DNA of 61,873 nucleotides from an uncultured Candidatus Saccharibacteria bacterium (GCA_964628095.1 CAZVLR010000003.1:1-61873); one strand, 5' to 3'; shown: positions 828 through 59,782, numbered from the stretch's first letter. Translations and numbers: made by a program. Notes: a model not told the origin generated them from the sequence alone.

Positions 828-2231
828 TTAATTAACCTTTTTAATCTTTATTCTAAAAATCAAAAACAGAAAGAGAAACTGAAAAACGGCTGAAATCGAC
901 AAAGCCAGTGGCAAAGCCACGATATTTATCTTATCCAAATCCTTGATTGAAAGCAATTTAATAAAAGCCAAACTGAAAATATTCTGAAAAGAAAAAAGCC
1001 ACAAAAACAGAAAAGATAAACCAATGGTAGCCGCCATATCTAAAATACTGGAAAAAGCCGGGGTTTTGGTATCCTGCAAAGCATGAAAGGCTTTAGCTAC
1101 CAACAGATTAAGGCTTTGAGCAAAAAGCCCCAAGGCAAACATGCCCAAACAGGCGGCAGTTAAATTAACATCGGCTAAAGCAAACTTCCCCACTTTAAAA
1201 ATCAAACTGATAAAAAATTCTCTGAAAAAAAACACTACTAAACTGACCGGTACGATAAATATAATTATTTTATAAAAAGCGTCGTAAAATATCTTTAAGA
1301 ACTTATTCCTGTCTTTTTGGGAATTAGCCAGAGAAAGCTGGGGAAAGGCGGCGGTGGAAAAAGAATTACCAATAAAGGTTTGAATAGGCCGGCTCAAACT
1401 GCTGGCTAAATTAAAAACCGCAATACTGCCCGAAGCCAAGGTGGAAGCAATGGCTGTAACCACGATTAGATTTAACTGGTCTGCGGCCAAGCCCAAAGAA
1501 CGGGGTAAAGTTAAAAATGCCACCCGCTTTACGCCCTTATGCCTAAAATCAAGAATCTTTTGGTATTTAAAACCAATGCTAAAAAGCGCTGGAATTTGAA
1601 TTATTAAGTGTAAAAAAGCGCCCAAGACTACGCCCCAGGCCAAACCCGCTAAACCCCAATAAGGAACAAAGAATATAATGCCCAGAATAATGCCCAGGTT
1701 ATACATTACCGGCGCCAAAGAACTGATTAAAAACCGCTGGAACACCCGCAGAATGGCTGAAATAATATTGCTCAGCCCTAAAATAATCGGGCTTAAAAAC
1801 ATAATACGCGTTAGTAAAACTGTCATTTCTTTTTTCTGTTCGGAGAAACCCGGGGCAATGGCCGATAAAATCTGAGGGGTAAAAATTATCAATAAGGCGC
1901 AGATTAAAATTAAAAGGAGAAAAAAGACGTTCAATAAATTGGACAGAAACTGAAACGCCTCTTCTTTAGAGCGCACCAAGTGCTCGCTGAAAATCGGGAT
2001 AATCGCCGCCGAAATGGCGCCGATAATAAAAACCATGCTGATAAAGTCGGGAATGCGAAAAGCGGTATAATAAATATCGAGCTCGCTACTCGCTCCAAAA
2101 CTGCCCGCTAACAACCGATCCCGAAACAAGCCCAACAAGGCCGAAACAAAAGAGGTGGCGGCTAAAATAAAAGCGGCCGAATTTATCGTCTGAGTTTGGT
2201 GGTGCGAAATTTTATTCAAGAAATTTTTCAT
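828..2231 (-). CDS. murJ: Lipid II flippase MurJ (MviN family)
   Basis: 467-aa polytopic membrane ORF. The N-terminal region SAAFILAATSFVSALLGLFRDRLLAGSFGASSELDIYYTAFRIPDFI is typical of MurJ. Confidence 0.85.
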   Translation of the reverse strand: MKNFLNKISHHQTQTINSAAFILAATSFVSALLGLFRDRLLAGSFGASSELDIYYTAFRIPDFISMVFIIGAISAAIIPIFSEHLVRSKEEAFQFLSNLLNVFFLLLILICALLIIFTPQILSAIAPGFSEQKKEMTVLLTRIMFLSPIILGLSNIISAILRVFQRFLISSLAPVMYNLGIILGIIFFVPYWGLAGLAWGVVLGAFLHLIIQIPALFSIGFKYQKILDFRHKGVKRVAFLTLPRSLGLAADQLNLIVVTAIASTLASGSIAVFNLASSLSRPIQTFIGNSFSTAAFPQLSLANSQKDRNKFLKIFYDAFYKIIIFIVPVSLVVFFFREFFISLIFKVGKFALADVNLTAACLGMFALGLFAQSLNLLVAKAFHALQDTKTPAFSSILDMAATIGLSFLFLWLFSFQNIFSLAFIKLLSIKDLDKINIVALPLALSISAVFQFLFLFLIFRIKIKKVN

Positions 2232-2923
2232 AAGGGCCTGATAACAATAATCGGGGTTAACTGGGCTAGTTGGCCGGCCGGATTATCTTTTAAAATGTCC
2301 AAAACTAATTGCGATTTATCTTTCAAATCAAAGCTTTCGCCCAGCACCTTTCCGCCAATATCGTTTACGTCAACAATAACGCAGGAAATATTGTATCTGT
2401 CTTTTAAGTCCTGGCAGATTTTAGAGCAATCTTTAGGGCCCAAAATTCCCATTTGCCCGTATTCTGAAAAAGCCTTGTCGTAAAAACCGTCGATTTCCGA
2501 AATCTGATGCCCGGCTAAACGATAAAAATCCCCTTTCCGGCCAAAAATCTTTGAAACCGTACCGATTAAACCGGCAAACAATATCCGGGGTAAGCCGGCC
2601 AAGTTAATTGCTACCTGCATTTTTAAAGGATTGCCCACTGAAAAACCGTAAGGGGTTTTGCTGGCAAAGCGAGACAAGAAATTAGCCCAAAAGCCGACTT
2701 TTAAATCTTTTTTATAAACAATCCTCTTTTGAAAAATAGAAATTATCTTCTGGCCCAAAACCACAATGTCGCCCGCTTGAACGTTGGGTAGGACATATTT
2801 TTTAACCACTTCATCCAAAGAGTCTTTTTCTAAGATAAAATGGGTTTTTATCGGGTAACGAGCCCATTTTTTACCTCCTACTTCAATGATTAAGTTTTTT
2901 CCGGCATTTGGTTGAAAATCCAT
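2228..2923 (-). CDS. CofE-like (F420-0:gamma-glutamyl ligase family, PF01996-like) protein of unknown role
   Basis: The track ORF 2228..3301 is trimmed to the ATG at 2921-2923 (MDFQPNAGK...) because upstream it overlaps RNase P RNA. Blocks GDIVVLGQKIISIFQ, VIVDVNDIG and TPIIVIR resemble CofE. The stop overlaps the murJ start by 4 nt. Confidence 0.55.
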   Translation of the reverse strand: MDFQPNAGKNLIIEVGGKKWARYPIKTHFILEKDSLDEVVKKYVLPNVQAGDIVVLGQKIISIFQKRIVYKKDLKVGFWANFLSRFASKTPYGFSVGNPLKMQVAINLAGLPRILFAGLIGTVSKIFGRKGDFYRLAGHQISEIDGFYDKAFSEYGQMGILGPKDCSKICQDLKDRYNISCVIVDVNDIGGKVLGESFDLKDKSQLVLDILKDNPAGQLAQLTPIIVIRPL

Positions 2924-2976
2924 ACTATTTAAAGCTGTATGGTTTATTTTAGTATTAAAACGGCCTTTTTTCAAGC

Positions 2977-3006
2977 TTGACAAATGAAGAAACTTCTTGG
3001 TAAAAT
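2977..3006 (+). promoter_or_regulatory. Sigma-70-type promoter for RNase P RNA
   Basis: TTGACA (2977-2982), an 18-nt spacer, then TAAAAT (3001-3006). The predicted TSS around 3013 coincides with the 5' end of the P1 helix. Confidence 0.6.
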
Positions 3007-3012
3007 ATAGGT

Positions 3013-3366
3013 GTCCTGGTAAGCCGGGTGATCGCTCTCTCCTTTGGAGAGGGAGGAAAGTCCGAACTTTCATTTCCGTAAATACGGATCTAAAAAGGTA
3101 GCGGGTAACGCCCGCCGTCCGCAAGGATAGAGGTGCGAGCAGAGACGCCAAGGGCTTGAAAAGGCCCTGGTATCCTAGAAATAGGATAAGCCTTAAAGGC
3201 AACTTTAAGGGTGAAACGGCCAAATCCTTACTGAAAGCAAGAGCAAACCTGGAAAGAATTACATGATTCTTATTCAGTGAAAAGTAGCTCGCTCGAGGCA
3301 ATTGGTAACAATCGCCCCAGACAGATGATCATTTAAACAGAATTCGGCTTATGAGCTTACCGGGAC
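3013..3366 (+). ncRNA. rnpB: RNase P RNA, bacterial type A
   Basis: Universally conserved GGAGGGAGGAAAGTCCGAAC (CR-I, P4 5' strand) at ~3047-3066 and ACAGAATTCGGCTTA (CR-V) at ~3346-3360. P1 pairing is CCTGGTAAGC (3015-3024) with GCTTACCGGG (3355-3364). A promoter lies upstream and a terminator downstream. Confidence 0.92.
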
Positions 3367-3371
3367 AAGAA

Positions 3372-4394: not shown

Positions 4395-6509
4395 TTATTG
4401 TTTTTTAAGAATCATGCCACTTTTTAAAACTAATTCAATTGTACCCGAAATATCGGAACCGTAAATATCTTCGTAGGTATCCGAACCCAGATTTATGGAA
4501 GCATTACCGCTGGAAATATTCACCAAGATTAGGGCTTTTTCGTATTCGCGCTCATAAACGTTTGGGTTGTCGCTTCTTTGATGGTAGTTTTCAAGCGGGG
4601 CACCCAAAGGCGTATCCCAGTATTCAAAATAGGGGAAGTTTTTATCGCCAAAGGCATAGCCAAAATAGGCATATCTTTCCTTGGCTAAAAGAAAAGAGCA
4701 AAAAGAAAACATGGCGTGCTTTTTTATGGTTTCAGTATAGATTTCTGAAAATCCTCCCTCGGGCACGACCAAAACTATTTTGTTTTGGGAATGGGTTGCT
4801 AATTTATTTACCTGTATTAGCCATTTATCCAAGGCAATATTAATATCAAAAGGCCCTTCCATATAAGCGCCGTCGGCATAGGATAAAAATTCCGGGTCGT
4901 TGTCGACGCCGCTGGTGGTAAAACCATTATAAATTAACAATTTCCCTCCAATTTTACTTTTGGTGCTATTGAGTAGCTGTACGGCCTCGTTCTTTACGTT
5001 GATAGTGGCTAAATTGGCTAAAACCCGGTAATTCACAACCACAGCGACACCTGTTGGCGCGTCGGATGACAGATATATTTTTTTATTCGCAATATCGATA
5101 TTGTCAACAGTGTAAGATTCGCCACTTGCTGAATTTTTTACCGTCGCCACCAAACAGCTAGGGTCGGAATCAGGAGTTTGCAAAATGTTAACGAGTTTCT
5201 GGCCCCCCTGCTCTTGGATTGTGGTATTTTCCAAAACGCCTCCGCAATTGTTGTTAAGATTAATATAGCCTATAAGCTCATCGTAGAACAAGCCGTCCAT
5301 GGTAGGCACATTTATTAAATGGCTTTGATTGTAATCGGTAAACTGCTCCCGCCAGTTAGAATCTGACCAGTTGTAGCGATGAAGCCCATTATAGCCGTTT
5401 CTAAGAATTCTGGTTTCTTTTTGAACCGGTTGCCCGAGCTGGTGCAAAAACCAGTCTTCATGCGTATTGGCTTCCACGTGCCAATTGTAACGCCAATCTT
5501 CTTGGTTTTGGAATAAGGCCAAATATTCTGTCCAGTAGGCAGATTCGGCATAGTCAACCACCGGGATATCAGATAACTGATCAATTAAATAATATCTGCC
5601 ATCGCTTAAAAGAGCGCCGGAAACAGACAAATCAATATGCCCTTGGTCGATAATAAATGTTTTTATGCTGCTGCCCGTGTAAACTGTCGGGGTGCCGGAG
5701 TTGGGATAATAAGTGGCGTGCGTGGTATTGTAATTGGTGTTGGTAATTTTAACTTCTTTGTTTAGGGCCGCCACCAAACAATCAAAGGGGCAGTTATTTT
5801 TGTCTTCTCCTATGCCGCAAACTCCATTACCACAAGTAGACCCTCCCGGTATTGGAACGGACATTACCACCTGCGAATTACCGCACAAAGGAACCGTTTT
5901 TAAGCCTGCTCTTTTAGTTAAGTCCGAAATATCACATTCCAAGCCCAAGTCTTCTGAACAATAACTAATGCCGTAATGGCAGGGACTCTCCTCTGTGCCC
6001 AGATTAATAGAAGTATATCCGTAAATATAGCGGTACTTTGAATTATTAACCGGGTCTTTGGGCGGACCGTCGGGGAACCAATCTTTTAGGATTTCTTTAA
6101 AGCTATTACCCCAGTCAGATCCCCCATTAATGCTGCCGTCTCCTACAGAGGCAGCTGCCAAACAATAAAGATTGTCTGCGTCTTCCAAACAGCTTTGGGT
6201 CGGATCGCAAAGAACATTCCAAAATGCATCTGGCCCGCCTTCCCCAAGGCAAGCTGCCGCTTCAGAACCGTTGGGGTTGGGATAATACCCGTAAAAAGTA
6301 TAATGGGCGTTAAGCGCCAGCCTTAATTGGTTGGTTTCAGCCGCTCTCTTGGCGTCTCGGCCCTCCTTCTTGGCGCTATCAAGCACTATGAAAACAATCG
6401 TGGTAAGAAGCCCGATAATAGCAATTACCACCAATATTTCAATTAAGGTAAAGCTCTTTCTCTTTTTACGCATAAATTGCAAAATTTTATTTTGTTTGGT
6501 CCCTTTCAT
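4395..6509 (-). CDS. Large pilin-signal protein: prepilin-type N-terminal methylation/cleavage motif, Cys-rich middle, large C-terminal globular domain (possibly glycoside-hydrolase-like)
   Basis: The N-terminus has KRKSFTLIEILVVIAIIGLLTTIVF, a class III signal with the conserved Glu at +5. Cys-rich segments include CGNGVCGIGEDKNNCPFDC. The C-terminal ~400 aa have no confident assignment. Confidence 0.6.
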   Translation of the reverse strand: MKGTKQNKILQFMRKKRKSFTLIEILVVIAIIGLLTTIVFIVLDSAKKEGRDAKRAAETNQLRLALNAHYTFYGYYPNPNGSEAAACLGEGGPDAFWNVLCDPTQSCLEDADNLYCLAAASVGDGSINGGSDWGNSFKEILKDWFPDGPPKDPVNNSKYRYIYGYTSINLGTEESPCHYGISYCSEDLGLECDISDLTKRAGLKTVPLCGNSQVVMSVPIPGGSTCGNGVCGIGEDKNNCPFDCLVAALNKEVKITNTNYNTTHATYYPNSGTPTVYTGSSIKTFIIDQGHIDLSVSGALLSDGRYYLIDQLSDIPVVDYAESAYWTEYLALFQNQEDWRYNWHVEANTHEDWFLHQLGQPVQKETRILRNGYNGLHRYNWSDSNWREQFTDYNQSHLINVPTMDGLFYDELIGYINLNNNCGGVLENTTIQEQGGQKLVNILQTPDSDPSCLVATVKNSASGESYTVDNIDIANKKIYLSSDAPTGVAVVVNYRVLANLATINVKNEAVQLLNSTKSKIGGKLLIYNGFTTSGVDNDPEFLSYADGAYMEGPFDINIALDKWLIQVNKLATHSQNKIVLVVPEGGFSEIYTETIKKHAMFSFCSFLLAKERYAYFGYAFGDKNFPYFEYWDTPLGAPLENYHQRSDNPNVYEREYEKALILVNISSGNASINLGSDTYEDIYGSDISGTIELVLKSGMILKKQ

Positions 6510-9654: not shown

Positions 9655-11322
9655 TTATTCTTCTTTTTTAATATTTTTTAAAGATTGCTCCAAGGCCTCT
9701 TTCAGCTCGCCCACATTCACCTCTTTTCTTTTGGGCCTTATCTGCTCTTCTTTATTTTTCCGGGGCGGCGCAAAGGGCATAAGCCCGGCTTGGGCGGTTT
9801 TTTCAAGAGAAATAGAGGGCGACACTACTGGCGCTGGCACCGGTGCCGGTGCCGGTTCTGATACTGATGCTGGCACCGACCCCTGCCTTTCCTGCTGGCT
9901 TTTTTTTAGGCAATTTTTGCAGTAAACCGGGCGCTTGCCATCGGGCGGGAAAACCACCTTGGTGTCTTTGCCGCACGAAGCGCATTTGGCGTCGTAAAGC
10001 TTGGGCGGTGCATTGGGCGTAGGCATTTGGGCCTGGGCAATATTCTCTAATCCGGCCCAACGAATGATTTTTTCTTCCACAATTTGGCGCCTAGTACCAT
10101 AACGCTCTCTTGAAGCTTTGATTATCTTTTCGGCAAAAGTTTGCTCGGGCACGGGAAAAGGCGGCAAAGTTGAAGCGGAAAAAGGCCGGCCGGCCAAACC
10201 GTCAATCATTAATTTTAAATAAATATTGTATTTGGCCAAATTAACCAAATCAGTGGCCATAAACTCCGGATTAAATTCTTTTTCCAGAAATTCGGCATCT
10301 TCAGCGCCAACGCGAAAGCATATCATCGTACCAATGTTGCCAAAAACCGCATCTCTAACTTTTTCATCCATCTGAGCAATATATTGATGCCCTAAAATCA
10401 AATCCAAACGGTACTTTCTGGCTTCTGAAAGTATGTTAACAAAAGATTCTGTGGCAAAGTTCTGAAATTCGTCAACATAAAGATAAAAATCTTTTCTCTG
10501 CTCCTCTGGAACATTCACGCGCGACATAGCGGCCAACTGCAGTTTAGTTATTAAAAGAGCTCCCAATAAAAGGGAGTTGTCTTCTCCAATGCGCCCCTTG
10601 GAAAGATCTAAAATTATAATCTTGCCTTCATCCATCACTTTTCGCATGTCGATATTAGACTGAACCTGACCGATAATGTTGCGGATTAAAGGGGCGGAAA
10701 TAAACTGGCCGACTTTATTCTGAATGGCGGCGGTCGCTTCCACTTCCAAACGCTGGGTATATCTTGAAAACTCGGTAATCCAGAAAGATTTTACCATGGG
10801 ATCGGCAATCTTTTCCACCACTTTTTTGCGGTATTCCGGATCAGCCAGCATACGGTTAACCCCAAGCAAAGTGGCGCCCGGATATTCGAGCAAGGCCAAA
10901 ATGGCATTGTTTAAAATATATTCCATGCGAGCCGACCAGACATCAGGCCAGATTTTTTTAAACACACCCATTAAACCCGAGGCTACCAAGTGCCGTTTTT
11001 CAGGATCGATATTCTCCATTACATTAAAAGCAATCGGGTGCTCCAAATCAGCCGGATTAAAGTAAATAACGTCGTTAACGCGGTGCGAAGGCACAAAATC
11101 CAACAAGCTTTCAGCCGCTTCTCCGTGCGGGTCGACAAAAGCCAGCCCCCGGCCCTGCTGGATATCCTGGATCGCCATGTTTCTCAACATGCCGGTTTTG
11201 CCCATGCCGGTTTTTCCCACAATATACATGTGGCGCCGCCGATCATCAATCTTAATACCAAAACGCTTTTTAATATTGCGGTAGTTGGTTTCGGCGAATA
11301 AATTTATTTCAGAATTTGCCAT
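9655..11322 (-). CDS. VirD4/TraD-like (type IV coupling protein / FtsK-HerA superfamily) P-loop ATPase with a C-terminal zinc ribbon
   Basis: Walker A VGKTGMGKTG and Walker B LYVDEFQNF. A C-terminal CASCGK-x17-CKNC ribbon is followed by a Pro/Ala-rich, Lys-rich tail. Confidence 0.7.
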   Translation of the reverse strand: MANSEINLFAETNYRNIKKRFGIKIDDRRRHMYIVGKTGMGKTGMLRNMAIQDIQQGRGLAFVDPHGEAAESLLDFVPSHRVNDVIYFNPADLEHPIAFNVMENIDPEKRHLVASGLMGVFKKIWPDVWSARMEYILNNAILALLEYPGATLLGVNRMLADPEYRKKVVEKIADPMVKSFWITEFSRYTQRLEVEATAAIQNKVGQFISAPLIRNIIGQVQSNIDMRKVMDEGKIIILDLSKGRIGEDNSLLLGALLITKLQLAAMSRVNVPEEQRKDFYLYVDEFQNFATESFVNILSEARKYRLDLILGHQYIAQMDEKVRDAVFGNIGTMICFRVGAEDAEFLEKEFNPEFMATDLVNLAKYNIYLKLMIDGLAGRPFSASTLPPFPVPEQTFAEKIIKASRERYGTRRQIVEEKIIRWAGLENIAQAQMPTPNAPPKLYDAKCASCGKDTKVVFPPDGKRPVYCKNCLKKSQQERQGSVPASVSEPAPAPVPAPVVSPSISLEKTAQAGLMPFAPPRKNKEEQIRPKRKEVNVGELKEALEQSLKNIKKEE

Positions 11323-21312: not shown

Positions 21313-22188
21313 TTAGATATTTTTTAAATAACCGATGAATTTGTAAATTAACTTGGCCACCAAAAAATCAGGCGCAATAAAGTTTTTAAGAGGCGACAAC
21401 TCCATAAAATCAGCGCCGATAATCTTTTTTTCTTTGCAGACTTGTCGCAGAATATCAAGGGTTTCCTGCCAAAAAAGACCGCCCGGCTCGGGTGTACCGG
21501 TCGAAGGCATTAAAGAAGAATCAAAAGCGTCAACGTCAAAGGTTAAATAAACCTGATCTTTTAAATTCTTAATAATCTTCCCTATTTCCCATGTTTTTTT
21601 ATCCTTGATCCAGAAAGTTTTAATTCTTTTTTGATTGTTCTCCCAAAAATCCAATTCGTTGTCGGTATTGCTGATATTCCGAATACCCATTTGCACCAGA
21701 TTAATATCGGAAAAATCCAAGCAACGCCTCATGGCGGCGGCATGGGAATATTTCTGGTTTTCATAACCGTCCCGCAAATCAGCATGGGCATCAAACTGTA
21801 AAATGCTAAAATTCTTAAAACCAGATTTTTGATAAGCACCAATAATAAACGGGGTTAAGCTGTGCTCGCCGCCCAAGCTTATAGGGAATTTTTTCTGCTT
21901 TAAAATATCGCCGATTAATTTCTCAACCAATCCTTTGGTTTTTAAAATGTCTTTTGGCAGCTTTAATTCTTCCAAAGTGGCGATTTTTATCTTTTTATCC
22001 GTTTCCTGCCACAACTCTTCATCAAACAATTCCACTTGCGAACTGGCCGAGATTATGGCTTTTGGCCCGTTTTTTGTTCCCCGACCGTAAGTGGTAGTCG
22101 CTTCAAAAGAAAAAGGCGCCACAATAATCTGCGCTTTTTCAAGGGGAATTTTTTCTATGTCTAAAAAATTATTAACCGCCGTCTTCAT
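21313..22188 (-). CDS. speB: Agmatinase (ureohydrolase family)
   Basis: Mn-binding motifs SLGGEHS, FDAHADLRD and LTFDVDAFD. Confidence 0.85.
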   Translation of the reverse strand: MKTAVNNFLDIEKIPLEKAQIIVAPFSFEATTTYGRGTKNGPKAIISASSQVELFDEELWQETDKKIKIATLEELKLPKDILKTKGLVEKLIGDILKQKKFPISLGGEHSLTPFIIGAYQKSGFKNFSILQFDAHADLRDGYENQKYSHAAAMRRCLDFSDINLVQMGIRNISNTDNELDFWENNQKRIKTFWIKDKKTWEIGKIIKNLKDQVYLTFDVDAFDSSLMPSTGTPEPGGLFWQETLDILRQVCKEKKIIGADFMELSPLKNFIAPDFLVAKLIYKFIGYLKNI

Positions 22189-22189
22189 T

Positions 22190-23338
22190 TTAATAATGTT
22201 TGTTTTTACCTTTGCTAAAATACGCCTTTAAGGAATATTTCTTCAGCGCTTTGTCTAAAAAATTCATCGCTTCTTCTCGATAATCAAGCAAATGCCTTGA
22301 TTCTCTTTTTATACCTTCTTGCAATAAAGCGTGGACAATAAAAGGAAAAACTGCGGTAACGTCGGATAAAACATATTGGGAGTTTTTTATGCATTCTTCA
22401 GAGGTTTTGCCCCAAGTGTGCGCCTCTGAAGCGGTGCAGCTGGATAATCCTCCATTCTGCACGTGCGCATCGCAAATTTGAACATCAGTGTCATACCCCC
22501 CAATATCAATATTACAAATCTGGCCCAAATAGGGTTCGGGCTGCAAGGAATAGTTTTTGGGTACGCCGCCGCCTAAAATGATAATCGATAATTTTTTGCT
22601 CCAGCGGTTTTTAGCCAAGTAATGGTAAGAGCCAAATTCATGAATATCTTCTTCCAAATCAATGCTGAATTTGTAGCGATGCCCCATTTTTCTTTTCAAA
22701 AAAGCTAGATTCAGAAAAATCGAACCGTCCTGGGGCGCACCGCAAAAAATCGGAATACGGTTGCGATAGCACTGCACCAGTAAACTACGATTTAAATCGG
22801 CCCGATGAAATCTTCTTTTTCCGAATCTCGCCAAATGGCGACCAAGTAAATAATGAAACTGGGTGGTGGTGAAAGAACGGTTAAAATCTGGCCGCCTAAT
22901 CAAATCAACCACTAAATTATCGGCGGTCCATAAATCATTTTCGGGAAAACCAATATCATAAATCCTGGTCCAGCCGGCTTTCCTTAGTTTTAAATCACCC
23001 TGGTTGGGATTCACTTCAAACCAATTATCGCTTTCCAATCTTTGGATGTCGTGATACAAATTAGCACCAGTAGTGGTAATAATATCCACGTAGCCCGCCT
23101 TAATTAAAGGTATGATGCAAGAAACCGCAAAATCAGCCGGCGTCAAGGCGCCCGAAAAGGCCAATACAATCGTATGATCCTTTTCAATCATCCTTTTAAT
23201 AATTTGATAAGCGGTTCTAACTTCCCGGCCGACATAAGAACCAAAAGCTTTATCAAAAAGCTCAGCGGTCGATTCTTCGCCATTAATCGGCTCGCTTGTA
23301 ACGCGACGCCCGACTAATCTCCTGGTAAGATGTTTCAT
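22190..23338 (-). CDS. Deoxyhypusine synthase family protein (DHS-like)
   Basis: Trimmed to the ATG at 23336-23338 (MKHLTRRL...). The upstream part of the track ORF overlaps pdaD. Contains the NAD-site GGGVPKNY and the catalytic-Lys context SEAHTWGK. Confidence 0.8.
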   Translation of the reverse strand: MKHLTRRLVGRRVTSEPINGEESTAELFDKAFGSYVGREVRTAYQIIKRMIEKDHTIVLAFSGALTPADFAVSCIIPLIKAGYVDIITTTGANLYHDIQRLESDNWFEVNPNQGDLKLRKAGWTRIYDIGFPENDLWTADNLVVDLIRRPDFNRSFTTTQFHYLLGRHLARFGKRRFHRADLNRSLLVQCYRNRIPIFCGAPQDGSIFLNLAFLKRKMGHRYKFSIDLEEDIHEFGSYHYLAKNRWSKKLSIIILGGGVPKNYSLQPEPYLGQICNIDIGGYDTDVQICDAHVQNGGLSSCTASEAHTWGKTSEECIKNSQYVLSDVTAVFPFIVHALLQEGIKRESRHLLDYREEAMNFLDKALKKYSLKAYFSKGKNKHY

Positions 23339-23342
23339 TTTT

Positions 23343-23930
23343 TTATTCTGTTTTTTTCTCCTCTTCTTCTTTTTGCTGTAAATAATGAGGCATAATAAAA
23401 ACGGCGGCAGACAAAACCGTAGTCCAAAGCCCGTCTTTGTTTCCAATGGCCGACTGGGTAATATTGGTTGTTTTTACGATCTTTCCGCTCATTTTATACA
23501 TTTGCTCCCGCTCGTCCCAGGCCGTATCCGGATCGAATTCAATGCCCAAAGTTGTGGCCAACATAGAAGCGGCCAGATCTTCGGCATAATGCCCGGCTTT
23601 CTGCTCGGTTTCGCCAAATGGATGATGCTCAGAAAGATATCCATATTGATTTTCATCGGCGGGTAAAGCGCAACCAATTGAAGAGGCAATTAATCTATTA
23701 GGTTCGTTGGTTGAATTTCGCGCCATTACCAAATAAACAATTTGCCCGGGTTTTATAAACTTTAATCCGTCTTCTTTGGAAATTCTTTTACAGCCGGGCG
23801 GAAAAATACTGGAAACCGTAACCAAATTAAAAGGAGCGATGCCCGCATCCCTTAAGGCCATTTCGAAAGAACTAAGATATTCCTTACTCACACCCACGCC
23901 TTTGGTAAAAAAAACTCTACTTGGAATCAT
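23343..23930 (-). CDS. pdaD: Pyruvoyl-dependent arginine decarboxylase
   Basis: [14 protein letters not shown]...[14 protein letters not shown] contains the self-cleaving Ser-Ser site. The ~190-aa size fits the family. Confidence 0.85.
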
Positions 23931-36895: not shown

Positions 36896-37600
36896 TTATT
36901 TTAAAACCTTGAGAATATTTTCGAAAATTACCGAGGGCGCGGGCGAACCGTTGATTTTTACGACTTTTAAGCCGGAATCTTGATAAAACTTAAGCAATGG
37001 AAAAGTTCTTTCTTGATATTCCTTAAGCCTAACTTTAATAGTTTCTATATTGTCCAAGCCCTTTCTAGCTTGTAGTTTTGAACCGTCCAGGGGGCATTTT
37101 GTCAGTTTTTCGGTCTCTTTTGAATACATGATGGTGTGACGCATTAGCTCGCAGAGTTTTCGATGCGAATTGCGCCAAATTGTTTCTTTGGCCGAAATTT
37201 CCAGCATAATTACCTTGATGTTTTTTAGCCCGTAAAGCCTTTTTAAAAGCGGTACTACCCGTTCACCTTCATAAAGCGTACGGGGCGACCCGGCTAAAAT
37301 AACGCTTTTGTCCTCGTCAAACAAAGTTTTTATTTTCTCTGATACCAAATAAGTAACCAGGGGCGGCGAACATAATTTGCCCGTTAAAAAAAGCTCTTTT
37401 TCTTTTTCAAGAGAATATTTTTTACCATCAACCAAAACCTGCTCGCCTTTTTTGGCTTTTTTAAAGCTTTCTTCCAACACCTTGCTGGTATCAAAATAAT
37501 AAAGGTTTAATTTTTCCGATAACAACTGGCCTTGAGTCCCTTTTCCCGAACCGGGCTGGCCCAATAAAATAACTACTTGTTTTTTATTAGAAGGTGTCAT
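36896..37600 (-). CDS. adk: Adenylate kinase
   Basis: P-loop LLGQPGSGKGTQ. Canonical position between secY and map. Confidence 0.85.
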   Translation of the reverse strand: MTPSNKKQVVILLGQPGSGKGTQGQLLSEKLNLYYFDTSKVLEESFKKAKKGEQVLVDGKKYSLEKEKELFLTGKLCSPPLVTYLVSEKIKTLFDEDKSVILAGSPRTLYEGERVVPLLKRLYGLKNIKVIMLEISAKETIWRNSHRKLCELMRHTIMYSKETEKLTKCPLDGSKLQARKGLDNIETIKVRLKEYQERTFPLLKFYQDSGLKVVKINGSPAPSVIFENILKVLK

Positions 37601-41182: not shown

Positions 41183-41368
41183 TTACCAGCTTGATTTTTT
41201 AACGCCGGGAATCAAACCTTGGTTGGCCAGCTCCCGAAAACAAATGCGGCAAACGCCGAATTTTCTCATAAAGGCCCTTTTCCGACCACATCTAAAACAA
41301 CGCCGGACCAGGCGTGATGTATACTTTGGTTTTCTATTCGATTTGGCTTCTTGACTGGTCGTTGCCAT
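41183..41368 (-). CDS. rpsN: 30S ribosomal protein S14, zinc-binding type Z (61 aa)
   Basis: [38 protein letters not shown]. Confidence 0.92.
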
Positions 41369-41410
41369 AATGCTTAATCTTAGCTTATTTTTCTAAAAAT
41401 TGCAATATAT

Positions 41411-42364
41411 TTAATAGGAAAGGTTCGAATACTTGCCGCACCTATCATTCCAACGGGAAACCACCTTATCGTCGATTCTGGCCTCAATTACCTCGCACAT
41501 ATTGGGACAACCATTGCACTGAAAGGAGGTGCATTTGATATTTTTATCCGAAACCTCCCAGCCGCGGAACTTGCTCTTTTCGGGCGCGTTTTCCTGGGCT
41601 AAAATCGCCATACCCAAAGCCCCGACTACGGTGTTGTATTGGGGTACTATCACATTGCTGCCAATCACCTCTTCAAAAGCCTTTCTCATGCCTAAATTCT
41701 CTGAAACACCGCCCAAAAAAATAATCGGCGATTCAATCTTTTTACTTTTAGCAACATTAGACAGATAATTCCTTGCCAAACCGTGGCACAAACCGGCAAT
41801 AATATCTTCTCTTGTATGGCCGATCTGTTGCTTATGAATCATATCAGACTCGGCAAAAACCGTGCAACGACTGCCAATAATCGTGGGCTGGCCGGATTTT
41901 AAAGCCAGCTCGCCGAATTTCTCTACGGGAATTCCCATGCGAAAGGACTGAGCATCCAAAAAACTGCCTGTACCCGCCGCGCAAATTAAGTTCATGGCAA
42001 AATCAACCACCACACCGTTTTCCAAAAGAATAATTTTGGAATCCTGACCGCCAATCTCAATTACGGTTCTAACTTCTGGCATTAAAAAACCCGCGCCTTT
42101 AGCATGAGCGGAAATTTCATTTTTAACCAAATCGGCGCCAACAATAACCCCCGCTAAATACCGGGCCGAACCGGTGGTGCCCACACTCGCAATTTCAATG
42201 TTTTCAGATATTTCTTTTTTCAAATGGGATAGGCCCGATTGGATTGATCTAATTGGATCTCCTTCGGTGCGGAAATAGAAGTACTTTAAAACTTCTCTCT
42301 GCTCATTAATTAAAACGAATTTTGTTGAAACCGAGCCAACATCGACTCCCAAATATGTTTTCAT
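41411..42364 (-). CDS. HgdC/BcrAD/BadFG-family ATP-dependent electron-transfer activase (ASKHA fold, bridging [4Fe-4S]) with a Cys-rich C-terminal extension
   Basis: YLGVDVGSVSTKFVLI (phosphate-1). Cluster-ligand contexts NLICAAGTGSFLD and GSRCTVFAESDMI match HgdC-type activators. The extra tail reads CTSFQCNGCPNMCEV...RCGKY. Confidence 0.75.
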   Translation of the reverse strand: MKTYLGVDVGSVSTKFVLINEQREVLKYFYFRTEGDPIRSIQSGLSHLKKEISENIEIASVGTTGSARYLAGVIVGADLVKNEISAHAKGAGFLMPEVRTVIEIGGQDSKIILLENGVVVDFAMNLICAAGTGSFLDAQSFRMGIPVEKFGELALKSGQPTIIGSRCTVFAESDMIHKQQIGHTREDIIAGLCHGLARNYLSNVAKSKKIESPIIFLGGVSENLGMRKAFEEVIGSNVIVPQYNTVVGALGMAILAQENAPEKSKFRGWEVSDKNIKCTSFQCNGCPNMCEVIEARIDDKVVSRWNDRCGKYSNLSY

Positions 42365-42378
42365 AATGTTTTTTAAGT

Positions 42379-43461
42379 TTAAATTTGTTTAATGCCTCTT
42401 TTTGATTTCATTAAATCCACAAAGGCCTCAATTCTGGTTTGAATTCCCGCTTCGCCGCTTTGTTCATCCAAAGAAATGCTTAAAAACGGCGTTTTATTCT
42501 TTTCGCTGATTCTTTGCAAAATCGGCCGTACGGTTACCTCGGGCATGCAGCCAAAGGGCAATAGTTGTATTATTCCATCAAAGCCTTTTTTTGTATAATC
42601 TAAAATCTCGGCAATCGCCTCTCGGCCGTGCCCGCCCACATCGGCTTTTAAATAAGAGCGGATTTTAAACTGCAAAGGCTTTTCTTTCCAAAAAAATCCG
42701 CTAAGCAGATGACCCGACAAATTCAGATCGCGATGGATTTGGACACCCATTTCCCCCAGCTTTTTTTCCATCTCAAAGTTTATCTTGCTGTCCGATACCG
42801 TATAAATCTCCCCCAGTAGCCCCACCTGTAAAATCTTTTTATTTTCATCGAGGGAAATTTGAGAAAATCTTTTCCAGGCGGTTTTTTTAATCTTTAAAAA
42901 ATCTTTGTAGGTTTTAGCTTCTTTAAAATCGGCCAAAGCTAATTTTAAGGTCTTTTCTGTCTCGCCCCGATTTTTTTCCCTGGGCTGATAATACCAAAAC
43001 TTTCTTTCCAGTTTTTCAACAAACATAATTTCCGTTAAAAAAGCCAGGAATAATTTTGCAAACTGGAAATAGGAAACGTTTTTGGGAGAAATCGATTTTA
43101 TCTGCGAAAAAACGTTATGAGCGTTTAAATTGACAAAGCGGATATCGTGGCCGGCATCTTTTAAGATTTTCTCTTGCACTATCCAATAATATCTTAGGCG
43201 GCAAATGCCGTTAACGTTTTCCCACATTAAAATGGTATTGGCCCCCTTTTCAATGGCTTTTAAATAATTTCCCACATTCACCTTAAAAGGAAAGCAAAAA
43301 AGCTCAGGCGAAAGCTTGGAACCGTTCCTGACAGCTTCAGCATTAGTTTCCTCGGGTGCGATAAACTGCAAGCTTAATTTTTGCATTAACTTTTCAAAAA
43401 CCGGCGTGTAATTGCCCCAATAAGGAAAAGTAACAATGGTATTTGAATTGTTTTCTGGCAT
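42379..43461 (-). CDS. Activase-associated protein, second subunit (2-hydroxyacyl-CoA dehydratase / DUF2229-related)
   Basis: 360 aa, with conserved Cys contexts ELFCFPFK, NGICRLRYY and LLPFGCMPEV. The C-terminal LSISLDEQSGEAGIQTRIEAFVD parallels the C-terminus of the upstream paralog (LLIDEHTAEAGLQTRLEAFID). Confidence 0.55.
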   Translation of the reverse strand: MPENNSNTIVTFPYWGNYTPVFEKLMQKLSLQFIAPEETNAEAVRNGSKLSPELFCFPFKVNVGNYLKAIEKGANTILMWENVNGICRLRYYWIVQEKILKDAGHDIRFVNLNAHNVFSQIKSISPKNVSYFQFAKLFLAFLTEIMFVEKLERKFWYYQPREKNRGETEKTLKLALADFKEAKTYKDFLKIKKTAWKRFSQISLDENKKILQVGLLGEIYTVSDSKINFEMEKKLGEMGVQIHRDLNLSGHLLSGFFWKEKPLQFKIRSYLKADVGGHGREAIAEILDYTKKGFDGIIQLLPFGCMPEVTVRPILQRISEKNKTPFLSISLDEQSGEAGIQTRIEAFVDLMKSKRGIKQI

Positions 43462-43465
43462 AAAA

Positions 43466-44356
43466 TTATCTGTTGGATAAAGTATCGATAAAAGCCTCTA
43501 GCCTTGTTTGTAGCCCGGCTTCGGCCGTGTGTTCGTCGATTAATAAGTATAAAAAGGGAATTTTTTGGCCGGTGAATTCCCGCTCTACAAACTCTTTAAT
43601 TACCGCATCGCAACCGCACTGAAAAGCGGAAATCTCTACAGCACCCGATATCTTTTCTCTTGAAGCGCTGTGGGACAAAGCAATCAGTTCCTTGCCAAAC
43701 TCCCAATGAAACCTGTTAGCAAAGGTATTATTATTAATATCACCCTCTGGTATCTGGTCGATAAAAATAACCTCCGCACCCAGTTTTTCCAGCCTTTCTT
43801 TGATATTCAAATTAACGTAGTCATCGTAAAGATTATACGGATGGCTCACCACTATAATCTTTTTTTTATCAGAAGATATTTTTTTAAGATACTCTTCTTT
43901 TTTTTGCCGCTCGCTCTCGTGCATTAAAGCTTGGGCCTTTTTGGCCGCTTCAAAAACAATATTTTCGCTTTTCCCGAGTTTCAAACCGGTGTTCATCAAA
44001 GTCGCCTGCAAGTTGTCTTTGGAAAAATCTACCTGAGGAGAAATAATTTTATTTTTCAAGAATGTTTTGGAAAGATCGGGCAGACCGAAGAATTTTGGGC
44101 AGTATTCGCCCAAAGAGTTTTTTTTATAACGAGGCAGAAAAATCGTATCAACCCTTTCATCCAGCCATAACAAATGGCCATAAAGAATTTTCACTGAAAA
44201 ACAGGTTTCCGAATCGGCGGTTTTTACCCCTTTTTCAACAATTTCCTTATTAGTTTGGGGAGAAAGCTGGATATTATAGCCCAATTCTTTAAAAAAATTC
44301 TCCCATAGTAAGGGATGCTTCCAGTAGAATAAAGCTCGAGGAATGCCAATAATCAT
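43466..44356 (-). CDS. Activase-associated protein, first subunit (DUF2229 'CoA enzyme activase uncharacterised domain'-like)
   Basis: The N-terminal IIGIPRALFYWKHPLLWENFFKELGYNIQLSPQTNKEIVEKGVKTADSETCFSVK is the typical opening of DUF2229 proteins as I recall them. Other Cys contexts are GEYCPKF and FQCGCDAV. Confidence 0.6.
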   Translation of the reverse strand: MIIGIPRALFYWKHPLLWENFFKELGYNIQLSPQTNKEIVEKGVKTADSETCFSVKILYGHLLWLDERVDTIFLPRYKKNSLGEYCPKFFGLPDLSKTFLKNKIISPQVDFSKDNLQATLMNTGLKLGKSENIVFEAAKKAQALMHESERQKKEEYLKKISSDKKKIIVVSHPYNLYDDYVNLNIKERLEKLGAEVIFIDQIPEGDINNNTFANRFHWEFGKELIALSHSASREKISGAVEISAFQCGCDAVIKEFVEREFTGQKIPFLYLLIDEHTAEAGLQTRLEAFIDTLSNR

Positions 44357-44371
44357 ATTGGTTTTTGTTTT

Positions 44372-44932
44372 TTAAGGTTTTATCGGAAAACCCATCAATC
44401 TCAGTAGTTCCACGCCTTCTTGCCGTTTTTTAATATTGGTAGTAATGGTAATTTGAAACCCAAAAATCATTCTTACCTTTTCAGGCAGAATTTCGGGGAA
44501 AATAATATGCTCTTTAATGGCAAATGTTAAATCCCCTTTTTTATCAAAAGATTTGCTGTCCAAGCCCTGAAAATCGCGCGAACGAGGCAAGGCGATATTG
44601 ATCACCCGCTCCAAAAAATCGTTCATTTTACGACCCCGCAGCGTAACTTTAGCGCCCAAAGGCATGCCCTGTCTGATTTTAAAACCTGAAATGGCTTTCT
44701 TGGACAAAGTAATCACGGCTCTCTGTCCGGTAATCTGGGTTAAATCATCAGCAATAGCAATAGCAATCTTTTTTTGCTCATCGTTGGTCTTTCCTACCAC
44801 CTGGCGACCAAAACCGGTATTCACCACCACCTTTTCAATCCGAGGCACGGCCATAATGTTTTTATAACCAAACTTTTCCATCATTTTGGGCACCACCTCT
44901 TTTTTATATTTTTCAGATAAATTGATTGACAT
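44372..44932 (-). CDS. rplE: 50S ribosomal protein L5
   Basis: L...Y...V.P.MMEKFGYKN.MAVPRIEKVV.N.G...ALPR.RDF.G. Confidence 0.92.
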   Translation of the reverse strand: MSINLSEKYKKEVVPKMMEKFGYKNIMAVPRIEKVVVNTGFGRQVVGKTNDEQKKIAIAIADDLTQITGQRAVITLSKKAISGFKIRQGMPLGAKVTLRGRKMNDFLERVINIALPRSRDFQGLDSKSFDKKGDLTFAIKEHIIFPEILPEKVRMIFGFQITITTNIKKRQEGVELLRLMGFPIKP

Positions 44933-56464: not shown

Positions 56465-56535
56465 CGGGCTGTAGTACAGCGGTAGTATACACCCTTGGGG
56501 TGGGTGCGACCCGGGTTCAACTCCCGGCAGCCCGA
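56465..56535 (+). tRNA. tRNA-Pro, anticodon GGG (71 nt, CCA not encoded)
   Basis: Manual cloverleaf. Acceptor CGGGCTG/CAGCCCG. D arm GTAC-AGCGGTA-GTAT. Anticodon arm CACCC-TTGGGGT-GGGTG. 4-nt variable loop. T arm CCGGG-TTCAACT-CCCGG. Discriminator A. Confidence 0.9.
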
Positions 56536-56720
56536 CAAGACAAGTCAAATTTCGGAAGAGGTTACCTCGGGGCTTCGCCCCTCGACGTCTCCGCTTTGCG
56601 CCCTGCGCAAAACGGCAAATCGTCACGGTTCATAAAAATCCATCTGGACTTTCCGGTTTTGGCAAAGATTCGCGCCGACAATTTTAGAAACTAAGAGAAT
56701 AATTTCATAGGATTTTTAAG

Positions 56721-58705: not shown

Positions 58706-59782
58706 TTAAAGCCCTAAAACTTGAACTAATTGTTTAATCATGGCCAGCACTACCGGCGGCGCTAACAAGCTTACCGATTCCACGCCTTGATCGTCTTTTA
58801 TCACCCAAGGCCGTTCTTTAACAACCGCTTTTTTACTCTTTTGGTCCCACTGATAATAATACTCGGGCGTGACTTCGTAATCGTCAACGTATTTTTTAGT
58901 TTCTTTTGCTGGCAAGGAATTTCTCAGATAAATTTTGGGTATACCGTAAAGCGACTGGGCTTGCTGTATCAGTTTTTCGTCTTTTTCCAGCCTATCTTTT
59001 ATAGGAGCGGTGCCCAATTCATCACCTTCTTTCCCCACCATCCGAACTTGCTTACATGAAGGATTATCACACAATAAATAAAATTCTTTTTGCTTTTCAT
59101 CGTATCCCACTTTGGAGGTTGGCAACAATTTCAAATTTCTCGAGGTTTGGCATTTAGGGCATACCCTTCTCCATTTGATTCTTTCATCAATAACCGAGGT
59201 GGGCACGTTGATTAAAATAAAAATGTCTTGGTCTTCCCGGTAACCAATTAGGTCTCGAAAAAATAAAGCGTAGGAAATCTGGTCCATTTCACGGGGAAAA
59301 CCATCAATAAATATTGTTTTTTTGCCTCTTTTGGCAATTTCTCTTTTAGCTAAAGCCAAAACCAATTCAGTGGGCAATAAAGTTTTGGTGCTTCTTTTTT
59401 CCAAAGACTTAATAATGTCTTCTAGAGGCAACCAGCCACGGTAATTCTTTTTTAGAAAATCAATTAGCGCTTTTTTCTTCTTAGGATCAGCTACTTCCTT
59501 GTCTAGCAATCGCACAGTGTCGCCAATAGAGAGATGTTCAATTTTATCGGATGAAACTATTTCAGCCAACATTTTGGCGTAAGTCCCCTTGCCCGAATTC
59601 TTCTTGCCCATTAAGTAAGCAATAAAAGTGTTCTTTTTAAAATAATCCTTTAGTTTTTTTATTTCCTTGCCCGCTTTCAAATTAAAATAGGCGGCCCTTT
59701 CCTTGGGGTCGGCCAAATTGAATTTTTTGTTAAGGCCGGATGTCTTTGTTTTAAAAATTGGGAATTCGTTTTTTGTTGGCAT
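58706..59782 (-). CDS. Adenylate-kinase-family protein, long form (358 aa) with a zinc-ribbon LID and N- and C-terminal extensions
   Basis: P-loop MGKKNSGKGTY, the NMP-binding-like FIDGFPREMDQ, and the LID CPKCQ...CDNPSC. Confidence 0.55.
   Translation of the reverse strand: MPTKNEFPIFKTKTSGLNKKFNLADPKERAAYFNLKAGKEIKKLKDYFKKNTFIAYLMGKKNSGKGTYAKMLAEIVSSDKIEHLSIGDTVRLLDKEVADPKKKKALIDFLKKNYRGWLPLEDIIKSLEKRSTKTLLPTELVLALAKREIAKRGKKTIFIDGFPREMDQISYALFFRDLIGYREDQDIFILINVPTSVIDERIKWRRVCPKCQTSRNLKLLPTSKVGYDEKQKEFYLLCDNPSCKQVRMVGKEGDELGTAPIKDRLEKDEKLIQQAQSLYGIPKIYLRNSLPAKETKKYVDDYEVTPEYYYQWDQKSKKAVVKERPWVIKDDQGVESVSLLAPPVVLAMIKQLVQVLGL

Follow-up and report, generated by a model that had tools for sequence, protein, structure and literature searches.

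We found that a three-gene cassette inserted into a ribosomal-protein operon of an uncultured Candidatus Saccharibacteria bacterium is, by module-by-module sequence homology, a fully split form of the enzymes that make bacterial ether lipids, the plasmalogen synthase PlsA/PlsR and the glycerol ester reductase Ger. The stretch of DNA analysed here spans 61.9 kb (the window; all coordinates refer to the whole stretch), and the cassette, genes A, B and C, lies on its minus strand between rplE and rpsN, which encode ribosomal proteins L5 and S14. A and B correspond to the two reduction modules of these enzymes and C to a single activase domain, with the module order permuted to Red1–Red2–Act. We found no description of a three-gene form in the papers searched, although a two-gene PlsA/PlsR split is already known. 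What is new is a minimal three-gene form of the ether-lipid-reductase class that is conserved in lipid-auxotrophic Patescibacteria, together with a clean break between L5 and S14. The machinery, a C2 activase and an A/B heterodimer, is well supported by the sequences, and its class is that of the oxygen-sensitive, ATP-dependent Fe-S enzymes of the benzoyl-CoA reductase (BCR)/2-hydroxyacyl-CoA dehydratase (HAD) radical-enzyme superfamily. As for its activity, we lean towards an ATP-driven reduction that would turn scavenged phospholipids, at their sn-1 ester, into ether lipids.

The open reading frames (ORFs) called in the window run on the minus strand in the order L14, L24, L5, A, B, C, S14, S8 and L6. 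The canonical order of the spc ribosomal operon, L24–L5–S14–S8, is thus interrupted by 3,003 nt, holding three genes, between rplE and rpsN. An earlier prediction made from the sequence alone (the original prediction) had described three same-strand genes at this place, and its coordinates and gap lengths (exactly 15, 4, 14 and 42 nt for rplE–A, A–B, B–C and C–rpsN) were borne out. The features of the locus are as follows.

44372-44932, minus strand: rplE (L5, 186 amino acids), 5' flank of the insert; Pfam Ribosomal_L5 and Ribosomal_L5_C
44357-44371, minus strand: rplE/A junction, 15 nt, AAAACAAAAACCAAT, without a terminator-like site
43466-44356, minus strand: gene A (296 amino acids), DUF2229 catalytic subunit, Red1 equivalent by homology
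42379-43461, minus strand: gene B (360 amino acids), DUF2229/HGD-D-like paralogous subunit, Red2 (PlsR-like) equivalent by homology
41411-42364, minus strand: gene C (317 amino acids), ASKHA-type ATP-dependent electron activase
41438-41533, minus strand: Cys-rich C-terminal tail of C, predicted additional metal or Fe-S site
41369-41410, minus strand: C/rpsN junction, 42 nt, without a terminator-like site
41183-41368, minus strand: rpsN (S14, 61 amino acids, Zn-ribbon type, with a CxxC...CxxC motif in its translation), 3' flank of the insert; Pfam Ribosomal_S14, 1.4e-22

DUF2229 (PF09989), the family of A and B, is the reduction domain of PlsA/PlsR and Ger (PMC13159169, PMC8788747, PMC12838417). 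Among the papers searched, all of the literature that gives this domain a function concerns bacterial ether-lipid synthesis, and the view in the original prediction that the family has no established substrate is outdated. PlsA/PlsR belongs to a family derived from BCR and HAD with Act1, Act2, Red1 and Red2 modules (PMC12838417), and in Ger the DUF2229/HGD-D modules come after two BcrAD_BadFG domains (PMC13159169). The validated Ger enzymes of T. maritima (Tmari_0479, AGL49404) and D. alkenivorans (SHJ90043) act under anoxic conditions, turning the sn-1 ester into an alkyl ether (PMC13159169), and on expression in E. coli neither Ger nor PlsA needs partner genes (PMC13159169, PMC12838417). Our sequence comparison covered the Thermotoga-genus orthologue cluster and uncharacterised fusions. 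The link to the validated T. maritima Ger runs through these Thermotoga-genus proteins and a bridging protein of 1,411 amino acids with Ger-type architecture, encoded in a Thermotogota locus (L047) from a scan of GTDB species genomes and 63% identical to a Thermotoga-genus protein (T. petrophila, T. neapolitana).

Each gene of the cassette matched one part of these fused enzymes. C aligned with Act2 and the linker that follows it (blastp, up to 44% identity and 3e-88, with the 1,420-amino-acid fusion P0381), and in profile comparison by hhalign it was much closer to Act2 plus linker (1.3e-78) than to Act1 (5e-38). A matched Red1 with 26–34% identity by blastp (up to 8e-50; 34% to residues 694–1000 of P0381) and with an hhalign value of 2e-40 over 288 columns. 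B matched Red2 of P0381 with about 20% identity (5e-15), and hhalign placed it closer to Red2 (1.2e-25 over 343 columns) than to Red1 (1.5e-17). All of these module matches were collinear, full-length and reciprocal-best, and the Thermotoga proteins gave the same mapping.

The cassette shares with Ger the Pfam set BcrAD_BadFG, DUF2229 and HGD-D, as well as a four-cysteine motif in the linker. Ger differs in being a single polypeptide of about 1,400 amino acids with the order Act1–Act2–Red1–Red2, whereas the cassette consists of three genes in the order Red1–Red2–Act, at 20–44% identity; the host of the cassette is unable to make its own lipids. In C. perfringens, PlsA/PlsR (CPE1194/1195) is encoded by two genes, PlsA comprising Act1–Act2–Red1 and PlsR comprising Red2, whereas PlsA of Enterococcus and Lactococcus is a single ORF. 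Separation of Red1 from Red2 therefore has a precedent, and the PlsR-like role in the cassette would fall to B. The cassette departs from PlsA/PlsR in that its split is complete, its order permuted and its activase domain single. The sequence does not tell an alkenyl (Pls) from an alkyl (Ger) ether product.

Twelve cysteines were kept in 42 of 42 Ger-type fusions: residues 52, 86 and 247 of A; 56, 87 and 305 of B; and 128, 167, 283, 286, 290 and 309 of C. In A, the invariant cysteines are C52 (44201-44203), C86 (44099-44101), C247 (43616-43618) and C249 (43610-43612); in B they are Cys56 (43294-43296), Cys87 (43201-43203) and Cys305 (42547-42549). Cys249 of A is specific to the candidate phyla radiation (CPR) clade and is replaced by proline or threonine in the 42 fusions. 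Cys278 of C (41531-41533) is likewise invariant in the CPR clade, whereas the position is variable in the fusions and a cysteine in none of the 42. Because these two residues are absent from the fusions, the CPR enzymes may differ in the details of their metal sites. Further evidence on the ligand positions comes from inteins of the LAGLIDADG type, which in relatives of the cassette sit exactly before metal-ligand cysteines. One interrupts gene B of L001/L002 before Cys305 (PFG|C...VHN|CMPEV; L001 6925-9150), and others interrupt gene C of L003/L004, L019, L028 and L042 before Cys128 (NLI|C...VHN|CAAGTG); A, B and C of the window have no intein. This placement marks Cys305 of B and Cys128 of C as conserved active-site positions.

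Consistent with a role as an activase, C scored far above the cut-offs of Pfam BcrAD_BadFG (PF01869; 7e-52, 177 bits against a cut-off of 31.5) and of TIGR00241, the acyl-CoA dehydratase activase model (2.6e-63, 213.9 bits against 125.4). The closest solved structures were MbdQ (2.5e-43), HgdC (2.3e-42) and HadI (6e-39), and the alignment spans both cluster-ligand motifs. Cys128 (41981-41983) lies in CAAGTGSF and Cys167 (41864-41866) in SRCTVFAESD; both align with the MbdQ motifs and are kept in 26 of 26 CPR orthologues and in all 42 Ger-type fusions. They are the predicted ligands of a [4Fe-4S] cluster bridging a C dimer, and C is predicted to couple ATP hydrolysis to electron transfer to a partner enzyme. 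The C-terminal tail carries the pattern C278-x4-C283-x2-C286-x3-C290...C309, whose five cysteines are invariant across the 26 CPR orthologues; in the 42 fusions C283, C286, C290 and C309 fall within the Act2–Red1 linker. HgdC, HadI and MbdQ lack this tail, and their alignments to C stop before residue 266. The HgdC-type activase of the original prediction, with its two cysteine contexts and its tail, was thus recovered in full. The ORF list of the window contained no second activase gene; the tblastn search with C covered related loci only.

A and B are paralogous DUF2229 subunits that, judging from structure models, have the fold of the catalytic subunits of HAD, BCR and the double-cubane cluster protein (DCCP). 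A matched Pfam DUF2229 with 168.6 bits (2e-49; cut-off 29.4) over profile positions 2–217 of 218, similar to the 165.9 bits of the Thermotogota fusion, and B matched it with 42.7 bits (7e-11). Both remained below the cut-off of HGD-D (PF06050; 20.7 bits for A and 26.1 for B, against 28.4), with matches limited to the last ~65 residues (profile positions ~274–342; 8e-6 for the C terminus of B). The two proteins align with each other by hhalign (2.7e-23) and have in common the C terminus ...DE..(T/S)GEAG(L/I)QTR(L/I)EAF(I/V)D. The paralogy and common C termini that the original prediction had described therefore stand, but the IGIPRALFYW opening that it gave to both is found in A only; B starts with TFPYWGNYTPVF. 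NCBIfam has no specific model for either protein, and its equivalogs scored far below their cut-offs (HadC NF052456, 16.6 bits against 700; double_cubane NF040772, 18.7 against 350). Because sequence comparison reached solved structures (DCCP or HadC, E 0.008 to 1) only through the last ~65 residues, fold prediction was needed. AlphaFold 2 models, built from alignments of 25 sequences for A and 28 for B, were confident, with predicted local distance difference test values of 84 and 87.6, respectively. The top Foldseek matches of both models were exclusively catalytic subunits, namely DCCP, HadC, BzdO/N and MbdO, with probability 1.00 and template modelling (TM) scores of 0.5–0.62; for 3o3m_B, 8s02_B, 9gai_B and 7yyl the TM scores were 0.55–0.62.

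These matches place the cassette among several characterised systems. HgdAB/HgdC and HadBC/HadI follow the same three-component logic, in which a homodimeric ASKHA activase with a bridging [4Fe-4S] cluster serves a paralogous, cluster-binding heterodimer, and HadC matches the fold of A and B with TM scores of 0.57–0.60. These 2-hydroxyacyl-CoA dehydratases differ from the cassette, in which A and B are DUF2229 proteins, the activase has an additional tail and an acyl-CoA pathway context is lacking. DCCP and DCCP-R (6eno, 7yyl) give the best or near-best fold match to A and B and work by the same ATP-dependent activase principle, but DCCP, a homodimer, carries an [8Fe-9S] cluster. Among the class I benzoyl-CoA reductases (BzdNOPQ, MbdONPQ), MbdQ is the closest solved structure to C, and BzdO and MbdO fold like A and B; these enzymes, however, have two distinct ATPase subunits and aromatic CoA thioesters as substrates, and no such pathway genes are present here.

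Taken with the characterised systems, these features suggest the following mechanism. A homodimer of C would hold the bridging [4Fe-4S] cluster on Cys128 and Cys167, with an extra four-cysteine site in the tail. Ferredoxin or flavodoxin would reduce C, which by ATP hydrolysis would inject an electron of very low potential into the A/B heterodimer, whose subunits would each carry a three-cysteine cluster site. The heterodimer would most likely act on an intact glycerophospholipid, whose sn-1 acyl ester carbonyl it would reduce, and dehydration would follow, yielding an alk-1-enyl (plasmalogen) or an alkyl ether lipid. CPR bacteria reportedly do not synthesise lipids but scavenge and modify them (PMC7242380). 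An enzyme acting on finished phospholipids would make biological sense in them; for a lipid-auxotrophic Patescibacterium, phospholipid of the host would serve as the substrate.

We found that the cassette is widespread outside the ribosomal operon. Relatives of A formed 693 clusters at 90% identity in a large protein collection, the best of them from CPR bacteria (54–64% identity), and a HMMER search over 1.84 billion representatives gave 2,597 matches at E < 1e-3. Among the top 150 representatives, 135 were stand-alone proteins of 280–400 amino acids, and a few were A–B fusions or fusions of 900–1,420 amino acids. The GTDB scan, with two strict peptide patterns, yielded at least 45 loci, nearly all from Patescibacteria (with Nealsonbacteria, Parcubacteria and Paceibacter-type labels), in which the A–B–C order is kept; L5 or S14 stood beside the cassette in none of them. 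Conversely, in the best 80 of 584 L5 matches from a metagenome scan (46–71% identity to the L5 of the window), S14 directly followed L5 wherever downstream sequence existed. Relatives with uninterrupted rplE–rpsN and the cassette elsewhere, which the original prediction had named as evidence against itself, thus do exist, but the neighbours there are housekeeping genes and not the acyl-CoA metabolism genes that it had expected in that case.

Among the loci scanned, the order rplE–A–B–C–rpsN occurred only in the window, in L001/L002 (two independent assemblies) and in L053/L054, the L5 of the window being 73% identical to that of L001/L002 and 72% identical to that of L053/L054. The order of the insert recurred in the assemblies ENA k141_809312, JGI Ga0315282_10012198 and Logan SRR29054609, at 60–85% protein identity; because these assemblies are independent, the junctions are not an assembly artefact. 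In a neighbour-joining tree of concatenated A, B and C sequences derived by tblastn, the window, L001/L002 and L053 formed one clade (bootstrap 200/200), and this insert-bearing clade was nested (199/200) among CPR loci with the usual context. Since the three lineages form one nested clade, a single intragenomic relocation probably took place in the ancestor of a narrow Paceibacteria-type clade. By sequence evidence, the simplest account of the ribosomal position is one relocation into the rplE–rpsN spacer, the cassette having stayed intact since, with 60–82% protein identity. The new system wired to ribosomal-protein expression that the original prediction had proposed is not supported by this distribution, and the position between rplE and rpsN gives no sign of a role in translation.

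At the junctions, terminator prediction found zero terminator-like sites within any intergenic gap of rplE–A–B–C–rpsN; two weak minus-strand sites nearby both lie within coding sequence. The GC content of the cassette (0.405) is close to that of its neighbours (0.41), GC at third codon positions likewise matches the rest of the window, and its codon usage correlates with that of non-ribosomal window genes (r = 0.96). Composition and codon usage are continuous across both junctions, and a search for traces of mobile elements or duplications at the borders of the insert found just short AT-rich chance repeats. The original prediction had pointed to the lack of a terminator and to the matching composition, and both observations held. 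Co-transcription of A, B and C with the ribosomal genes is therefore plausible from the sequence, as it had proposed, and transcription of the spc operon probably reads through the cassette, which would hence be expressed constitutively.

At their more usual position in CPR genomes, the genes lie downstream of an Elp3-like radical SAM gene and methyltransferase, LOG-like and MgtC genes, sometimes an amino-acid permease gene, and an EndoQ-like gene, and are followed, sometimes after a metallophosphatase gene, by DUF498, radical SAM, RtcA and GreA genes. None of these block genes, from Elp3-like to GreA, is in the window, and the block gives the impression of unrelated housekeeping genes whose synteny was inherited. 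Upstream, the neighbour that recurs most constantly, directly before gene A (in L003, L006, L009–L018, L050, L052 and others), is a protein of ~415 amino acids that opens DFHLHSKYSRATS; it has a CPICG zinc-finger-like motif, matches TIGR00375 and Pfam MJ0043_C, and has an EndoQ-like or PHP-like look. It has no homologue in the window and is unrelated to A, B and C by inspection and by Pfam and NCBIfam. Elsewhere the cassette lies between metG and the ATP synthase genes, or beside thyX or gyrB. In a metagenome-assembled genome (MAG) of Dehalococcoidia (L136, JALPWC010000001.1, 4707-11481), the order is purD, an AB fusion (690 amino acids), a C-type activase, purB, purC and purS, a second case of the module within a core housekeeping operon. 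The divergent CPR loci L039, L040 and L041 (for example, L039 4978-8996) have a B12-binding radical SAM gene (616 amino acids) directly upstream of A–B and no C-type activase within 7 kb; considered as a lipid-modifying partner, that protein matched generic B12-binding radical SAM models only, far under their cut-offs, and was rejected. Separately, the Thermotogota MAG of L047 (2080-9238) encodes a 596-amino-acid HGD-D + BcrAD_BadFG fusion, then Sua5, directly upstream of the 1,411-amino-acid Ger-type protein, so that two distinct activase-dependent enzymes adjoin. Because the neighbours differ between lineages and partner genes are lacking, a self-sufficient enzyme, as Ger and PlsA are in E. 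coli, fits these loci.

Several points weigh against reading the cassette as a lipid ester reductase of the PlsA/PlsR–Ger class. The tandem activase domains termed 'BB' are reported to be conserved in all alkyl-ether producers (PMC13159169), and the cassette holds one activase gene, of 317 amino acids; by analogy with HgdC, a homodimer of C could replace the tandem. Identity to the fused enzymes is modest for A (26–34%) and for B (about 20%), and these values are from fusions rather than from the characterised PlsA/PlsR of C. perfringens, PlsA of E. faecalis or Ger sequences themselves. Among the papers searched, none reported an ether lipid from CPR bacteria, and nothing relevant was found on plasmalogen, PlsA, Ger or hydroxyglutaryl-CoA dehydratase in CPR or Parcubacteria. 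Lipid genes do not adjoin the cassette consistently, NAD_Gly3P_dh (a gpsA-type glycerol-3-phosphate dehydrogenase) and choline kinase being sporadic only. The case for co-transcription, finally, consists of the short gaps and the lack of a predicted terminator.

Alternatively, the same machinery may serve a different substrate, the stand-alone A/B/C enzyme being a functional paralogue of PlsA and Ger that reduces or dehydrates some other hard-to-reduce carbonyl or small molecule. We regard this as a serious alternative, though a less probable one than a lipid substrate. The 20–34% identity to Ger-type fusions would allow it, as would the conserved, CPR-specific Cys249 of A and Cys278 of C; the stand-alone form of ~300 amino acids is very large as a group and uncharacterised (135 of the top 150, 2,597 representatives); DCCP, a top fold match through 6eno and 7yyl, shows that the fold can reduce small molecules; and DPANN archaea, which already have ether lipids, are reported to carry Ger homologues (PMC13159169). 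However, the twelve metal-ligand cysteines and the whole module set are common to the cassette and the Ger-type fusions, the characterised DUF2229 enzymes are lipid ester reductases only (in the papers searched), and across about 50 loci the cassette does not share its surroundings with genes of an alternative pathway. More specifically, the stand-alone A/B/C enzyme of Patescibacteria and other carriers might act on a housekeeping substrate and not be a lipid ester reductase at all, which we consider unlikely. Hints in this direction are the embedding in core operons (spc, purine), the adjacency to EndoQ-like, Elp3 and RtcA genes, the extra cysteines of CPR and the inteins at catalytic cysteines; capture by a ribosomal operon would then couple the activity to growth rate.

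A low-potential reductase linked to translation or ribosome biogenesis, with a ribosomal, RNA or nucleotide target, would account for the spc-operon site, the gaps of 4–42 nt and the missing terminator, and could draw on the Elp3, RtcA, GreA and EndoQ-like neighbours in other CPR genomes and on the purine operon of the Dehalococcoidia MAG. We consider it very improbable, because the ribosomal site is restricted to one narrow clade and absent from the at least 45 other loci, the best 80 of the 584 L5 loci have L5 then S14 where readable downstream, the neighbours vary by lineage as compact genomes predict rather than as a functional tie would, and the closest characterised homologues act on lipids. 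Similarly, the likeness of C to HgdC and MbdQ, and the HadC-, BzdO- and MbdO-like folds of A and B, might suggest a classical 2-hydroxyacyl-CoA dehydratase or class I benzoyl-CoA reductase working in amino-acid fermentation or ring reduction. This reading is effectively refuted by the profile scores, the HGD-D matches being partial and under the cut-off and the HadC and DCCP equivalogs reaching 17–19 bits against 350–700. In addition, no CoA-transferase, 2-hydroxyacid dehydrogenase or Bcr/Bzd partner gene is present in any locus examined, and HgdC, HadI and MbdQ have no counterpart of the Cys-rich activase tail; we give this reading hardly any credence. That the rplE/cassette/rpsN junctions are an assembly chimera was considered solely for the rarity of insertions at rplE–rpsN, and we found no support for it. 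With the same order in independent assemblies from three sources, and with continuous composition and codon usage, the junctions are real and the chance of a chimera is negligible.

The window is otherwise typical of a Patescibacterium, in agreement with the CPR host of the original prediction: it encodes SecA, SecD, SecF and SecY, MurJ, glycolytic enzymes and glycosyltransferases, with nearly all genes on one strand. Among the very few plus-strand features are a bacterial class A RNase P RNA (127.5 bits, 3016-3367) and tRNA-Pro(GGG) (56465-56536), the sole tRNA in the 61.9 kb. The 5' part of a 357-amino-acid ORF (2228-3301, minus strand) with a TTG start and no Pfam match overlaps the RNase P RNA, and the call is probably at least partly spurious. 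At 21313-23446 (minus strand), a deoxyhypusine-synthase-family gene (418 amino acids) adjoins an arginase/agmatinase-family gene (291 amino acids); as a pair they resemble polyamine or hypusine-like genes, an unusual combination for a bacterium. A 555-amino-acid protein (9655-11322, minus strand) combines TrwB/TraG-type coupling-protein ATPase domains with the treble-clef zinc finger zf_Tbcl_2, a small domain that also occurs as a stand-alone gene of 58–60 amino acids near the cassette in L003 and L051. An N-terminal methylation motif like that of type IV pilins and a GHL15 glycosyl-hydrolase-like domain are present in a 704-amino-acid protein (4395-6509, minus strand). Of two adenylate-kinase-like genes (58706-59782 and 36896-37600, minus strand), one, in the ribosomal cluster, is the adk expected to follow secY, and the other encodes a 358-amino-acid ADK/AAA_17 protein elsewhere.

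The place of the cassette in the ribosomal operon is mainly an evolutionary curiosity, a clean, single and datable break in one of the best-conserved gene strings of bacteria, and the relocation probably puts an oxygen-sensitive Fe-S enzyme under ribosomal-protein-level expression. The published homology screens for Ger demanded at least 30% query coverage (PMC13159169). Because each gene of the cassette covers less than 30% of the ~1,400 amino acids of Ger, such screens would be likely to miss the split form, and the potential for ether-lipid synthesis may be underestimated well beyond CPR. If the lipid substrate that we infer is correct, bacteria unable to make fatty acids or phospholipids would convert host ester lipids to ether lipids with a minimal three-subunit enzyme. 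This would supply a concrete mechanism for the 'scavenge and modify' lipid economy reported for CPR bacteria, and the possible bacterial producers of ether lipids in anoxic sediments and groundwater would gain a group not recognised so far.

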